NCBI GenBank assembly: GCA_022013085.1
Contig: JAKLQX010000056.1
Location: forward strand, 1 to 47,552
Length of the DNA stretch: 47,552 nt
Origin: Candidatus Omnitrophota bacterium
Lineage (GTDB): Bacteria; Omnitrophota; Gorgyraeia; Gygaellales; Profunditerraquicolaceae
Direction of reading: 5' to 3'
Below, piece by piece: positions 3,088 to 24,639 of the stretch. The first letter of the stretch is position 1; each line of letters opens with the position of its first letter. The notes under the pieces are model-generated. The model was not told where the DNA came from, searched no databases, and worked only from the letters and a program-made list of their open reading frames with translations. The translations under genes were made by a program, and so were the position numbers.

Positions 3088-4722
3088 TTAATACATTCCT
3101 CCGCCGCCCATCCCGCCCATTCCACCTCCGGGTGGCATCTTGTCATCTTTTTCAGGTTTATCCGCGATTATAGCCTCAGTTGTGAGTAATAGCGCGGCAA
3201 TACTGGCAGCATTTTGCAATGCTGAACGTGTTACTTTTGTGGGATCAATTACGCCAGCTTCAATCATATCTACATAAGCATCCTGGCTAACATCGTAACC
3301 AATATTGGTTTTTTCCTGTTTGATTCTTTGTACAACTACTGAACCTTCTAGGCCTGCATTTTGAGCAATCTGCCTTAAGGGCTCTTCAATAGCGCGCTTT
3401 ACAATATTAACGCCTATTTTCTCATCACCTTCAAGCTTTAGTTTATCTAAAGCAGCAATAGTACGGATAAAAGCTACTCCGCCGCCTGGAACGATTCCTT
3501 CTTGAGTAGCTGCGCGTGTTGCATGTAAGGCATCTTCAACTCGGGCCTTCTTTTCTTTCATCTCAGTTTCAGTAGCAGCACCTACATTAATTACTGCAAC
3601 GCCACCAGCTAATTTAGCCAAGCGTTCTTGTAGTTTTTCTTTGTCATAATCTGAATCGGTATCTTCAATTTGTTTCTTTAACTGGCTGATTCTAGCATTG
3701 ATTGCTGCATTTTTACCAGCACCTTCGACAATAGTAGAATTTTCTTTGTCAATTTTAACTTTTTTTGCTCTCCCGAGATCTTCCACTTCAATATTTTCTA
3801 ACTTAATGCCTAGATCTTCGGTTAATGCTTTTCCGCCGGTTAAAATAGCGATATCTTCGAGCATAGCTTTGCGCCTATCACCATAACCCGGTGCTTTTAC
3901 CGCGCAGGCAACAAAGGTGCCGCGGATTTTGTTAACTACTAAAGTTGCCAAGGCTTCACCATCTACTTCTTCAGCAATGATCAATAATGGTTTTCCTACG
4001 CGAGCGATCTTTTCTAATAAAGGAAGAATATCTTTAATTGAAGATATTTTTTTCTCATAAATGAGAATATAGGGATCTTCTAAAAGAACTTCCATTCTTT
4101 CCACGTCAGTTACAAAATATGGCGATAAGTATCCCTGGTCAAATTGCATACCTTCGACAACCTCGAGAGTTGTGGCGGTGGATTTTGCTTCTTCAACCGT
4201 AATCACTCCGTCTTTACCAACTTTATCCATTGCTTCGGCAATTAACTCACCGATAGCGGTGTCTGAGTTAGCCGCGATACTTGCTACCTGGGCGATCTCT
4301 TTTTTATCTTTGATAGGAGTAGAAAGTTTGCCCAGCTCTTCAACTACTTTTTCAACCGCTTTTTCAATTCCGCGTTTTAAAGCCATAGGATTTGATCCGG
4401 CAGTTACATTTTTTAATCCTTCACGATAAATTGCTTCCGCTAAGATAGTAGCAGTGGTAGTTCCGTCACCTGCGATATCAGAAGTTTTTTCAGCAACTTC
4501 CTTTACCATCTGGGCGCCCATATTCTCAAAAGGATCTTCTAAATCAATTTCCTTGGCTACGGTAACTCCGTCTTTTGTGATTGTGGGAGAGCCAAATTTC
4601 TTGTCGATTACCACATTGCGCCCCTTAGGGCCTAAAGTTACTTTTACTGCTGCTGTCAGCTGCTCTACGCCGCTTAAAATCTTGCGACGCGCATCATCAC
4701 TATACAATAATTGCTTTGCCAT
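3088..4722 (-). CDS. groEL: Chaperonin GroEL
   Basis: 544 aa. [15 protein letters not shown] start, [11 protein letters not shown] motif, C-terminal [12 protein letters not shown] tail. Confidence 0.98.
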
Positions 4723-5816: not shown

Positions 5817-6534
5817 AAATAAGGCTAAGTCCTTTTAAAGTTAGATTACGGTCAATTTTTATGCTTATGTCAGAGTATTTTTTAACTAAACTAATGCTTC
5901 CTCCTGTGCCGATAATCTGGGTATGTTTTCCGATTTTACGCTTAATCCTGCTTGCTAAACCATTGGCAAGAACGCCTGCACCAATAACTACTCCGCTTAA
6001 TATGCTGCTTATTGTATTAGTTCCGATAAGCTCTTTGGGATATTGTAGCTTAATCCGCGGAAGCAGTGCGGTTTTTTCATTTAAGGCAGCTAGAGAAATT
6101 CCCAGTCCCGGAAGAATCAAGCCTCCTAAATATGCCCCCTGTTTAGAAATTACGTCGAAAGTCAAAGCCGTCCCGGAATCGATGACAATCAAAGGCGCAC
6201 CGTAAAAAATTAATCCCGCGTAGGCGTTCACTAAGCGGTCCTGGCCAACTTGGTTTGGGTTTCGGTAGCGGTTTTTAATTGGTACTTGCGCATCTTTTCC
6301 TATTATATATGGCCTCTTACCAAGCATTCCTGTTAGATCTTTCTTAACCGCGTTAGTCAATTTAGGAACAACGCTGCAGATAAGTGTATCTGTAATTTTC
6401 AAGGGGCCTATTTTTTTACGAAATTTATTGAGAGAATATTGTTTTGAAGGTATATCAAATATTTTTTTAATAGCGTTATTATTAAAAATACCGCAACTTA
6501 TATTGGTGTTTCCAATATCAATAGCCAGTAGCAT
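5785..6534 (-). CDS. coaX: Type III pantothenate kinase
   Basis: 249 aa. MLLAIDIGNTN ASKHA phosphate-1 motif. Typical CoaX length. Confidence 0.9.
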   Translation of the reverse strand: MLLAIDIGNTNISCGIFNNNAIKKIFDIPSKQYSLNKFRKKIGPLKITDTLICSVVPKLTNAVKKDLTGMLGKRPYIIGKDAQVPIKNRYRNPNQVGQDRLVNAYAGLIFYGAPLIVIDSGTALTFDVISKQGAYLGGLILPGLGISLAALNEKTALLPRIKLQYPKELIGTNTISSILSGVVIGAGVLANGLASRIKRKIGKHTQIIGTGGSISLVKKYSDISIKIDRNLTLKGLSLIYENEIKNRNF

Positions 6535-19704: not shown

Positions 19705-19779
19705 TCGGGGCGGACAGATTTGAACTGTCGACCTCTTGAACCCCATTCAAGCGCTCTAGCCAAACTGAGCCACGCCCCG
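19705..19779 (-). tRNA. tRNA-Pro (GGG)
   Basis: CGGGGCG acceptor stem. Anticodon arm CTTGA-ATGGGGT-TCAAG. T-arm GACAG-TTCAAAT-CTGTC. No encoded CCA. Confidence 0.9.
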
Positions 19780-23512: not shown

Positions 23513-23586
23513 TGGAGCGGGTGATCGGAATCGAACCGACATATATAGCTTGGAAGGCTATTATTCTACCATTGAACTACACCCGC
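23513..23586 (-). tRNA. tRNA-Gly (TCC), CCA encoded
   Basis: GCGGGTG-TA-GTTC-AATGGTA-GAAT-A-ATAGC-CTTCCAA-GCTAT-ATAT-GTCGG-TTCGATT-CCGAT-CACCCGC-T-CCA. Confidence 0.92.
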
Positions 23587-23603
23587 ATAATAATCTTAAT
23601 ATT

Positions 23604-23644
23604 GGCGGGAGAAGGCTATTGTTCTACCACTGAACTACTCCCGC
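23604..23644 (-). pseudogene. tRNA-Gly 5'-half / internally deleted fragment
   Basis: GCGGGAG-TA-GTTC-AGTGGTA-GAAC-A-ATAGC-CTTC, followed directly by TCCCGCC. The acceptor strand matches the 3' fragment at 23424..23463, not the intact tRNA-Gly. Confidence 0.7.
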
Positions 23645-23658
23645 GTCGGTAGAATTCT

Positions 23659-23959
23659 TGGGCAGGAGAGGATTCGAACCTCTGAAGCACAGGTGCAACA
23701 GATTTCAAGTGCCCTCAAGTTACCTTGAGGCTTGGACTATCTCATCACCTTGGCTATAAATAGCTTTAGGCGGTAGGCGCTTAGTCTCTGCACCTTCCCT
23801 CCCTCTTGGTTTCGCAAGATAACGGGAGGGCTTGGCTCAGGATTGCCCTTAACTTTTAAGTCAAGGGGTTCCCTGAATTCACCTACTTTTCCATCTCGCT
23901 TCTCAACGAGACGCTGCGTTTACACAGTCTGTCCCCTTTGGCCACTTGGGTACCTGCCC
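23659..23959 (-). tRNA. tRNA-Tyr (GTA) interrupted by a group I intron
   Basis: Exon 1 is 23959..23924 (GGGCAGGTACCCAAGTGGCCAAAGGGGACAGACTGT). Exon 2 is 23705..23659 (AAATCTGTTGCACCTGTGCTTCAGAGGTTCGAATCCTCTCCTGCCCA). Joined, they give a canonical class II tRNA whose anticodon arm CAGACUGUAAAUCUG matches E. coli tRNA-Tyr. Confidence 0.9.
23706..23923 (-). ncRNA. Group I self-splicing intron (IC3-like core), 218 nt, no internal ORF
   Basis: The 5' exon ends in U, which can form a U-G wobble with intron GCAG (P1). The intron ends in G. Core strings UCAGGGAA, GGGCAAUCCUGAGCCAAGCC, AAGGUGCAGAGACU and AGUCCAAG are near-identical to cyanobacterial tRNA-Leu introns. P9 is CCUCAAG-GUAA-CUUGAGG. Confidence 0.88.
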
Positions 23960-24557
23960 ATATTAAAACAAAATCTTTAATCCAATTGTCTATTATTCCT
24001 AATAATTTCTTGTCATTATACCTAATATGCACCAAACCATAAATTAATTTTCTTTTACTTAAGTTAGGGTTACCTTTTCTAATAAAAGGTTTGGTAAATT
24101 GCTTTAAAGAAATTTTTGTTAGATTATGCCAATATAATTTTAAAGAATTTACATTTTGATAGGAATATCCGTAAAGATAAACTCTCAACCGCTCTTCTTT
24201 TGCACCGCAAATTTCTCTTAAAAATCTTAAAAAAATTTTTATCATTTTCGGGTTACTATTTACAAAATCCACAGAATTACCTTTTGATGTTCCTTCGGCC
24301 CAATATAGCATAATTCCCGCTATTTTCAATTTCTCTTCCGCGATAGATAAATCAGTCTTGATCCTAAATTGAGGTCTACTTTTATTGACAACATAATTAA
24401 CTTCGGAAAAAGAACGACGTGGTATATTATTCTCGCGCATAAAATCATGCAAGCGCCACATCGAAATATTTAATCTCTTAGCGGTTTCTTCTAAATTACG
24501 TTCTTCGTTCCAATACAGGCTTTTAACTTCGTTAACATCAAGAATACTTTTATTCAT
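23883..24557 (-). CDS. HTH plus LAGLIDADG-like putative homing endonuclease, free-standing
   Basis: 224 aa. N-terminal HTH (LEETAKRLNISMWRLHDFMRENNIPRR). IAGIMLYWAEGTSKGNSVDFVNSNPKMIKIFLRFLREICG resembles a single LAGLIDADG motif with the following beta-sheet scaffold. The last about 25 codons read through tRNA-Tyr exon 1 and 41 nt of the intron. Confidence 0.55.
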   Translation of the reverse strand: MNKSILDVNEVKSLYWNEERNLEETAKRLNISMWRLHDFMRENNIPRRSFSEVNYVVNKSRPQFRIKTDLSIAEEKLKIAGIMLYWAEGTSKGNSVDFVNSNPKMIKIFLRFLREICGAKEERLRVYLYGYSYQNVNSLKLYWHNLTKISLKQFTKPFIRKGNPNLSKRKLIYGLVHIRYNDKKLLGIIDNWIKDFVLIWAGTQVAKGDRLCKRSVSLRSEMEK

Positions 24558-24566
24558 ATATTTTTT

Positions 24567-24639
24567 AGCCGGCGAGAGGAATCGAACCCCCGACCTTTTG
24601 TTTACAAAACAATTGCTCTACCAACTGAGCTACGCCGGC
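24567..24639 (-). tRNA. tRNA-Thr (TGT)
   Basis: GCCGGCG-TA-GCTC-AGTTGGTA-GAGC-A-ATTGT-TTTGTAA-ACAAA... T-loop TTCGATT. No CCA. The 5' end lies 1 nt after the nnrD stop. Confidence 0.9.

Follow-up and report, generated by a model that had tools for sequence, protein, structure and literature searches.

Can a bacterial tRNA gene be interrupted inside its own anticodon and still be a working gene? The question is raised by a 47,552-nt contig of a Candidatus Omnitrophota bacterium (JAKLQX010000056.1, assembly GCA_022013085.1), in which the two halves of a tRNA-Tyr(GUA) gene lie 218 nt apart; the whole of this stretch is referred to here as the window. The classical hosts of group I introns among bacterial tRNA genes are Leu(UAA), fMet, Ile(CAU) and Arg(CCU). 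An earlier reading of the sequence letters, referred to here as the original prediction, had proposed that the 218 nt are a group I intron seated between anticodon positions 35 and 36 of tRNA-Tyr. A genuine group I intron, well conserved, does split the gene within the anticodon, as a covariance model, a tRNA finder and comparative covariation agree, and the arrangement is widespread in Omnitrophota. The element is very probably a working self-splicing intron in a working tRNA-Tyr gene of this organism. It is a group I, IC3-like intron of the class Tyr.4Ug, which was already catalogued in a preprint and is not a new class.

The split tRNA-Tyr gene

The gene is read on the minus strand, where the coordinates and strings quoted in the original prediction were all found, as GGGCAGGUACCCAAGUGGCCAAAGGGGACAGACUGU / GUAAACGCAGC...CACUUG / AAAUCUGUUGCACCUGUGCUUCAGAGGUUCGAAUCCUCUCCUGCCCA, the strokes marking the ends of the intron. 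Exon 1, which ends in ...ACAGACUGU, comprises the 5′ strand of the acceptor stem, the D arm, the 5′ strand of the anticodon stem and loop nucleotides C32, U33, G34 and U35. Exon 2 starts with AAAUCUGU and supplies A36, A37 and A38, the 3′ strand of the anticodon stem, a long variable arm, the T arm, the 3′ strand of the acceptor stem and a discriminator A; CCA is not encoded. When introns were allowed, ARAGORN reported a tRNA-Tyr(gta) of 85 nt with a 218-nt intron at “actgt-Intron-aaatc” (that is, CUGU-intron-AAA), and exons spliced in silico were folded by the same program into the canonical class II tRNA-Tyr with a long variable arm that had been foreseen. The Rfam group I model (RF00028, Intron_gpI) matches 23933..23713 (-) over its full length with 100.3 bits (E = 6e-25), the gathering score being 50. 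Two of the checks proposed at the outset, the Rfam model and a tRNA finder with intron detection, came out in favour of the intron. The precursor is predicted to fold at -123 kcal/mol, compared with -90.9 +/- 5.3 kcal/mol for dinucleotide shuffles (z = -6.1), and this energy-only fold recovers the paired regions P1, P2, P4, P5, P6a/b and P9 together with the acceptor stem and the T arm.

The same locus sequence occurs in three independent assemblies, with Logan and ENA contigs 100% identical to it and a JGI contig 97% identical, and it is therefore no assembly artefact or chimera. Default tools pass over the gene: ARAGORN in its default mode listed only Pro, Gly, Thr and Met tRNAs in the window, and a whole-window Rfam tRNA scan did not see the split tRNA-Tyr. 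Since default tRNA finders miss the gene, genomes that carry it will appear to be without tRNA-Tyr in completeness and annotation pipelines. No second tRNA-Tyr was found within the 47.5-kb contig by ARAGORN, default or intron-aware, or by Rfam.

Relatives, covariation and intron anatomy

A scan of 185,579 species-representative GTDB genomes with the pattern GACTGT-N65-95-GAGCCAA-N12-42-AGGTGNAGAGACT recovered at least 119 loci. ARAGORN proved unreliable in placing the introns of these relatives, where it made spurious Thr(tgt), Ser(tga) and His calls, and the junctions were re-derived on four requirements: U at position -1, G at the last intron position (omega), five unbroken pairs in the anticodon stem and recognition of the spliced sequence as a tRNA by ARAGORN. 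At least 49 further tRNA-Tyr(GTA) loci, from different species-level genomes, carry a homologous intron at the 35/36 site. Among the matches listed, the Tyr introns are 181–267 nt long, about 37 of the 49 loci are labelled Omnitrophota, and all 49 share the gene order PdxJ, AcpS, Nnr, tRNA-Thr, tRNA-Tyr. The intron tracks this conserved synteny, which suggests vertical descent; much as with the cyanobacterial tRNA-Leu intron, it appears to be ancient in this lineage and to have been passed on for the most part vertically.

Two oddities of labelling were met among the Tyr loci. Seven of them (L032, L049, L075, L079, L085, L095 and L118) come from metagenome-assembled genomes (MAGs) labelled Planctomycetia or Planctomycetales and show the PdxJ-AcpS-Nnr-tRNA-Thr-tRNA-Tyr(intron) order; either they probably belong to the Omnitrophota lineage and the labels are off, or the block is common to lineages of the PVC (Planctomycetota-Verrucomicrobiota-Chlamydiota) group. 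In addition, a single MAG (JAZDFW01) holds two different versions of the whole block (L012 and L024), which suggests a mixed bin.

Covariation was counted on an alignment of 49 Tyr pre-tRNA segments. Standard pairs make up 95.3% of cells, compared with 83.5% in shuffled controls and 32–47% with slid partners; changes occur on both sides in 48 of the 76 pairs, and compensatory change was counted in 432 cells. Five measures of covariation were computed, and the observed values were reached by none of 500 shuffles. P2, P3, P5, P6a, P8 and P9 all covary. Five hairpins had been named in the original prediction (P2, P5, P6, P8 and P9), and most pairs of P2, P5, P6a, P8 and P9 covary in the alignment. 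The outermost pair of the anticodon stem, whose strands lie in different exons, is AU in 17 sequences, GC in 16, CG in 10, GU in four and UA in two. Given that this split pair covaries, the spliced tRNA is the selected product.

The anatomy of the intron, for which coordinates are collected in Table 1, is that of a compact group I ribozyme. Within P1, C32-U33-G34-U35 and intron G1 pair with intron nt 6–10, and the pair at the 5′ splice site is a U35-G7 wobble, as had been anticipated for the last base of exon 1 and intron GCAG (nt 7–10). All 49 aligned Tyr loci have the same four exon pairs, the U•G among them, and the fifth pair covaries (GC 24, AU 11, GU 3, CG 2, UG 1). P3 has seven pairs, with compensatory change in five and 99.4% of cells paired; P4 joins UCAGGG with UCCUGA (99.3% of cells paired) and encloses P5, a simple hairpin of nt 57–78 in which six of eight pairs show compensatory change. 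P6 is invariant, P6a is compensatory in 7/7 pairs and P6b is lineage-specific. The P7 pseudoknot was assigned via the structure line of the Williams seed alignment, as the Rfam model does not annotate it, and its pairs are invariant across the 49 sequences save for the outermost A-U pair in two; P7 would be the guanosine-binding helix. Both L2 (GAGA, compared with GAAA in most relatives) and L9 (GUAA, as originally read) are GNRA loops, P8 bears a receptor-like CCUAAAG/CCAAGG motif, and L2 may dock on it by analogy with Azoarcus. The last intron base, claimed from the start to be G, is G in every aligned member. No open reading frame (ORF) lies inside the intron.

Variation in length was seen at two places in the Tyr introns. 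A hairpin of ~49 nt is inserted just before the terminal G in L049, L063, L068 and L107 (alignment columns 303–351). Right after the 5′ strand of P7, an extra P7.1-like hairpin occurs in L025, L028, L066 and L080 (columns 168–209), and a similar one is present in the Lys.2Ug, Asn.4Ug and Phe.2Ug seeds of Williams.

Table 1. Position, make-up and basis of the features of the tRNA-Tyr locus, in minus-strand order.
Feature	Position (strand)	Make-up or pairing	Basis
tRNA-Thr(UGU), upstream in Thr-Tyr-Gly cluster	24567..24639 (-)		ARAGORN and Rfam
224-aa ORF	23883..24557 (-)	N-terminal helix-turn-helix and uncharacterised alpha/beta core; neighbour, not part of the intron	
tRNA-Tyr(GUA) exon 1	23924..23959 (-)	36 nt	ARAGORN with introns and on spliced sequence; sequence reading
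P1	23914..23927 (-)	exon CUGU and intron G1 (23927..23923) with guide CGCAG (23918..23914); loop UAAA	
Group I intron	23706..23923 (-)	218 nt, compact, IC3-like, ORF-less	Rfam RF00028; ARAGORN bounds; covariation (n = 49)
P2 hairpin	23893..23912 (-)	nt 12–31; GNRA tetraloop L2 GAGA at 23904..23901	compensatory changes in 8/8 pairs
P3, 5′ strand	23880..23886 (-)	GUAGGUG; pairs with 23779..23773	
P4 enclosing P5	23837..23876 (-)	P4 = 23876..23871 with 23842..23837; P5 = 23867..23846	
P6 enclosing P6a/P6b	23792..23836 (-)	P6 = GCC/GGU; P6a/P6b = 23830..23797	alignment pair count
P7, 5′ strand	23782..23788 (-)	G-(A bulge)-GACUA; pseudoknot with P7 3′ strand UAGUCC, 23739..23734	
P3, 3′ strand	23773..23779 (-)	CGCCUAC	alignment pair count
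P8 hairpin	23746..23772 (-)	nt 152–178; CCUAAAG...CCAAGG motif, tetraloop-receptor-like	4/5 outer pairs covary; motif from alignment
J8/7 and P7 3′ strand	23734..23745 (-)	AUGAGA and UAGUCC	alignment: 9/12 columns invariant, 3 nearly
P9 hairpin	23713..23730 (-)	nt 194–211; GUAA tetraloop at 23723..23720	compensatory change in 6/7 pairs
3′ tail	23706..23712 (-)	GCACUUG, ending in omega-G (23706)	terminal G invariant in alignment
tRNA-Tyr exon 2	23659..23705 (-)	47 nt	sequence reading and ARAGORN
tRNA-Gly(UCC), downstream in cluster	23513..23586 (-)		ARAGORN and Rfam

From this anatomy and its conservation we infer catalysis, tertiary docking and the cell's reliance on this gene for tyrosine decoding, along the following lines. 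The gene would be transcribed with its neighbours tRNA-Thr, the 224-aa ORF and tRNA-Gly, and the intron would fold into P1–P9 with the P3/P7 pseudoknot, a fold probably clamped, as in Azoarcus, by contacts of L2 GAGA with P8 and of L9 GUAA with P5. The internal guide 5′-GCAG-3′ would pair with C32-U33-G34-U35 and so present the U35-G wobble, after which a free guanosine held in P7 is expected to attack behind U35. G218 would then occupy the guanosine site, the 3′-OH of U35 would attack before A36, and the joined exons would restore the loop CUGUAAA. With no P10 pairing apparent, the five-bp anticodon stem between the exons most likely holds them together, as it does in the pre-tRNA-Leu of Anabaena (Zaug et al. 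1993, as cited in PMC3984707).

Several points weigh against so complete a picture. The search for an uninterrupted tRNA-Tyr covered this 47.5-kb contig alone. Inspection by eye showed no P10 pairing of the guide region with exon 2, and the tertiary clamp may be weaker here than in relatives, as L2 is GAGA and the P8 motif is off consensus. The search pattern required GAGCCAA, AGGUGNAGAGACU and GACUGU, and their conservation among the matches is thus partly by construction; the covarying helices lay outside the pattern. Finally, the class Tyr.4Ug is, as the Williams preprint presents it, a product of computation alone (doi 10.1101/2020.01.27.920355).

If this is the sole tRNA-Tyr gene, all tyrosine decoding in the cell would depend on RNA self-splicing. 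Leucine (UUA/UUG) decoding in cyanobacteria and plastids depends on RNA self-splicing in this manner. With its single insertion site, rich covariation and shared gene order, the set of ~50 species-level genomes could provide a second natural model of a tRNA ribozyme passed on by vertical descent, and also a phylogenetic marker for Omnitrophota.

Introns of the same type are not confined to tRNA-Tyr. At least 29 loci have an intron at the same site, after U35, in tRNA-Asn(GTT), in Patescibacteria and others (e.g., L027, L043 and L110). At least ~19 further loci, from Burkholderiales, are called tRNA-Asp(GTC) by ARAGORN (e.g., L006, L013 and L036); the junction rule did not place these introns, and the intron clade is probably also present in the tRNA-Asp of that order. 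The guide GCAG occurs in nearly all of the 119 or more loci and pairs with CUGU (nt 32–35), a sequence common to the GUN-anticodon (queuosine-family) tRNAs Tyr, Asn and Asp. The fit of one guide to this shared CUGU would be a simple explanation for the presence of one intron clade at the same site in several tRNAs.

Two of the tRNA-Asn(GTT) introns come from MAGs labelled as DPANN archaea. One lies at 5973-6168 (+) of locus L114 (Rfam 84.8 bits), on a contig of 509 kb that also carries arCOG04150, a universal archaeal KH protein, and subunits A and B of topoisomerase VI; the other lies at 3690-3888 (-) of L113 (81.3 bits), with arCOG04150 74 nt from the intron. Archaeal group I introns have been reported only in rRNA (Nawrocki et al. 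2018, PMC6125680), and the single archaeal tRNA case that the Williams preprint takes up was dismissed there as mis-binning (doi 10.1101/2020.01.27.920355). Nonetheless, the introns of L113 and L114 look genuine.

The adjacent reading frame and competing explanations

The minus-strand gene order in the window is PdxJ, AcpS, NAD(P)H-hydrate dehydratase, tRNA-Thr, the 224-aa ORF, tRNA-Tyr with its intron, a truncated tRNA-Gly, tRNA-Gly, a PAS histidine kinase and a response regulator. Thr-Tyr-Gly is a familiar order in bacterial tRNA clusters, for example in the thrU-tyrU-glyT-thrT operon of E. coli, and the intron-bearing tRNA-Tyr occupies its conserved slot in this order. A scan for promoters and terminators was uninformative (5 sites, 3.6 expected).

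The truncated tRNA-Gly copy (GCGGGAGUAGUUCAGUGGUAGAACAAUAGCCUUCUCCCGCCAA, 23602..23644 (-)) stands between tRNA-Tyr and tRNA-Gly; its 7-bp acceptor stem, D arm and 5′ anticodon-stem strand are preserved, and the stretch running from the anticodon through the T arm is missing. It is predicted to fold as a minihelix (-15.4 kcal/mol) and, among the loci compared, was seen in the window alone. Three independent assemblies of this organism (L001, L002 and L003) all break within or just after tRNA-Tyr, near tRNA-Gly and the truncated copy, a repeat that probably confuses assemblers. A tRNA-Pro(GGG) at 19705..19779 (-) escaped Rfam when the whole window was scanned at the gathering threshold, but scored 61.4 bits when its region was searched alone; its apparent absence is an artefact of the speed filter and no biological oddity.

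The ORF, recorded at NCBI as a hypothetical protein, fills the spacer between tRNA-Thr and tRNA-Tyr and leaves 0 nt before the 5′ end of the latter. It lacks a stop codon of its own: the frame continues across exon 1 and into the intron, where a TAG within P3 terminates it. After cleavage of the transcript by RNase P, the mRNA of the ORF would be without a stop codon. The C-terminal tail of its homologues is likewise translated tRNA, in different frames, and residues 202–224 of the AlphaFold model (overall mean 81 on the predicted local distance difference test, pLDDT) are disordered, with pLDDT < 50. Invariant residues of the core are Y85-W-A-E-G89, R123/R125, Y127/Y129 and H177-x-R-Y-x-D182. 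For the helix-turn-helix a match was found, with E down to 9e-6, to the DNA-binding segment of phage families that carry the annotation “HNH endonuclease”. The core had no match to Pfam, NCBIfam or PDB by sequence profile, and its fold no Foldseek match better than E = 0.077 against PDB or 0.01 against viral models; no motif or fold of the GIY-YIG, HNH, LAGLIDADG, PD-(D/E)xK or Endo VII type was detected by profile and fold searches.

A LAGLIDADG endonuclease had been suspected from the string GIMLYWAEGT and was unsupported by Pfam, by PDB profiles, by AlphaFold with Foldseek and by hhalign. The best PDB match in Foldseek is not a LAGLIDADG protein; the best viral model does carry that label, but at E = 0.01 and a template modelling (TM) score of 0.23, and hhalign gave a probability of 0.13% for the ORF against a hand-entered I-CreI sequence. 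With E of 1e-3 or better as the threshold, the wider family comprises at least 4,999 clusters at 50% identity. Its members have varied types of N-terminal helix-turn-helix, some have tandem cores, and Pfam found helix-turn-helix matches only when distant and long members were searched.

The distribution of the ORF was examined from two sides. Among the matches listed, it is present upstream in ~27 of the 49 intron-bearing Tyr loci, with spacers of 600–870 nt, and cleanly absent from 13, with spacers of 8–55 nt; decayed remnants were found in L038 and L069, and spacers of intermediate size at several other loci. Homologues include those of L005, L007, L012, L014, L024 and L123–L202, and more distant ones (30–41% identity) in other lineages directly adjoin tRNA-Asn genes that carry the intron. 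ORFs of this family always adjoin the 5′ end of a tRNA gene. The loci L035, L075 and L084 carry paralogues downstream of tRNA-Gly, and that of L035 overlaps the start of another tRNA. In a sample of 80 metagenome loci chosen by the ORF alone, the intron follows every homologue of more than ~53% identity. Those of 45–53% identity lie directly upstream of an intron-less tRNA-Tyr (~30 loci) or tRNA-Thr(GGU), the absence of the intron having been confirmed by Rfam in the subset scanned. The presence of homologues at intron-less tRNA genes ties the family to the 5′ edge of tRNA genes and not to the intron. The idea of a strict partnership between ORF and intron was accordingly demoted, many homologues in this sample standing beside intron-less tRNA-Tyr.

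What, then, are the alternatives to an inherited, self-sufficient intron in a working gene? One is that the intron is still mobile and spreads with the ORF (24557..23883) as a free-standing homing endonuclease, an arrangement termed collaborative homing; the ORF would cut intron-less alleles of tRNA-Tyr, and the intron, by splitting the target, would protect the host gene. Such pairs are known from the cyanophage F-CphI with the psbA intron and from T4 mobE with the nrdB intron, and the ORF resembles F-CphI, mobE and T4 SegB (from a tRNA gene region), as these are described, in being small, wedged between conserved genes, variably present and known from decayed copies (PMC13096335, PMC6083498, PMC2790892). 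Like the free-standing homing endonucleases described, the ORF has an N-terminal helix-turn-helix of the kind seen in phage endonucleases and adjoins an ORF-less intron. A present, decayed or absent ORF at intron-bearing loci is the pattern expected of a selfish gene, and the matches to phage “HNH endonuclease” modules, the tandem-core versions in the wider family and the abutting intron-bearing tRNA-Asn genes all point the same way. However, unlike SegB, F-CphI and mobE, the ORF is chromosomal and not of phage, stands also beside intron-less tRNA genes and has no known nuclease motif; precise-site presence and absence and degenerate copies are found, as in free-standing homing endonucleases, but a recognisable nuclease domain is not, whether by profile, Foldseek or hhalign. 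The homologues upstream of intron-less tRNA-Tyr and tRNA-Thr(GGU) also speak against the proposal, as does the agreement of intron presence with conserved synteny. Ongoing spread by this route is therefore rather unlikely. The ORF may yet belong to a new family of free-standing homing endonucleases; a role of this kind with the intron as partner is conceivable, and needless for explaining the intron. The broader idea that the ORF represents a large, unrecognised family of free-standing, tRNA-targeting homing endonucleases with a fold unlike those of solved nucleases, that the GCAG-guide intron is its immunity partner, and that the pair spread the intron among Tyr, Asn and Asp tRNAs across phyla and into DPANN, is decidedly unlikely.

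The same 13 intron-bearing loci without the ORF bear on a second alternative, in which the intron splices incompletely alone and requires a protein helper in vivo, for example the ORF as a maturase. The physical linkage of ORF and intron in many genomes, the lack of a visible P10 and the GAGA of the window's L2 would suit this arrangement, yet at those loci, and at others with remnants only, introns and exons are intact and covarying, and the compact tRNA introns of Azoarcus and Anabaena are known to self-splice efficiently without protein (PMC3984707). Dependence on such a helper is accordingly highly improbable. That the locus is a decaying pseudogene, with an inactive intron relic in a disused copy of tRNA-Tyr, can hardly be entertained: nothing positive was found in its favour, the elements of the catalytic core are all intact and invariant, compensatory changes in 49 species-level genomes have preserved all helices as well as the split anticodon stem, and the gene sits in the canonical position of a tRNA cluster. 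An inherited intron that splices itself from a functional tRNA-Tyr precursor accounts best for these observations.

Comparison with known introns

The catalogue of such introns drawn on here is that of K. P. Williams (bioRxiv 2020, doi 10.1101/2020.01.27.920355), for which 80,413 bacterial assemblies were scanned and 21 host and site classes reported. Its seed alignment includes “Mba143.Tyr.4Ug” (CUGU/AA...), as well as Asn.4Ug, Asp.4Ug and others, and in GISSD, the preprint relates, the four classical classes of tRNA intron are assigned to IC3. The claim that tRNA-Tyr is an unlisted host accordingly holds for the four classical hosts, but not for the literature as a whole, since the Tyr.4Ug seed has the same host and the same site. 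No peer-reviewed description of a tRNA-Tyr group I intron, or of group I introns in Omnitrophota, was found in the literature, the Williams preprint being the sole account located. Knowledge of group I introns as such is unchanged, the class having been catalogued computationally in 2020.

The window intron shows sequence and structural features that belong to each level of this classification. Membership in group I follows from the RF00028 score, the U•G in P1, the omega-G, and the P3–P7 pseudoknot, P4–P6 and P8 with their covariation. Features of IC3 are the location in a tRNA anticodon loop, the compact length of 218 nt, the lack of P5abc and of an ORF, and kinship with classical IC3 introns, with which the strings GGGCAAUCCUGAGCCAAG and GGUGCAGAGACUA are shared. 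Those of Tyr.4Ug are the tRNA-Tyr host, insertion after the fourth nucleotide of the anticodon loop, U at -1 and G at omega (CUGU/...G/AAA).

When compared with eight seeds of the Williams catalogue, the window intron was closest to Sel1.Leu.3Ug, the tRNA-Leu(UAA) seed of Synechococcus elongatus (71.5% identity). This agrees with the likeness to cyanobacterial tRNA-Leu and Azoarcus cores to which the original prediction pointed, as does the presence in the intron of GGGCAAUCCUGAGCCAA and GGUGCAGAGACU. The Tyr.4Ug seed Mba143 shares with the window intron its host, the CUGU/AAA site, U at -1, the terminal G and the guide GCAG, but its identity of 63.9% is the second-lowest among the eight seeds, and the core strings AAUUCAGGGAA, AAUCCUGAGCCAAG and GGUGCAGAGACUAAGCG of the window intron are replaced in that seed by GAUAACGGUGAAA, AAUACCGUGGGAA and CCGUAGAGACUAGAUA. 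In view of the low identity and the differing core strings, at least two intron lineages seem to use this site.

The cyanobacterial tRNA-Leu intron is likewise compact, lies in the anticodon loop and shares GGGCAAUCCUGAGCCAAG and GGUGCAGAGACU with the window intron. It has also persisted vertically for long in one phylum, and in it the anticodon stem probably replaces P10. The two differ in host tRNA, site and guide, the cyanobacterial intron lying between positions 34 and 35 and the Tyr intron between 35 and 36. A further difference from the classical introns is found in the 3′ domain, where the window intron has a single P9 hairpin with GUAA and AUGAGAUAGUCC in J8/7, whereas the classical introns have a larger P9/P9a/P9b and AAGGGAUAGUCC; in this domain it is closer to the Lys.2Ug, Asn.4Ug and Phe.2Ug seeds of Williams. 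The tRNA-Ile(CAU) intron of Azoarcus (Aol6.Ile2.5Ug), an IC3 intron of solved structure, resembles the window intron in its length of ~200 nt, its lack of P5abc and the GNRA loops on P2 and P9. Its P8 carries a receptor of the CCUAAG...UAUGG type, akin to the motif in P8 of the window intron, and the core strings GAGCCAAG and AGAGACUA are shared. The two introns are 65.4% identical, and they differ in that the Azoarcus intron is inserted 3′ of the anticodon and has a different P9 and tail.

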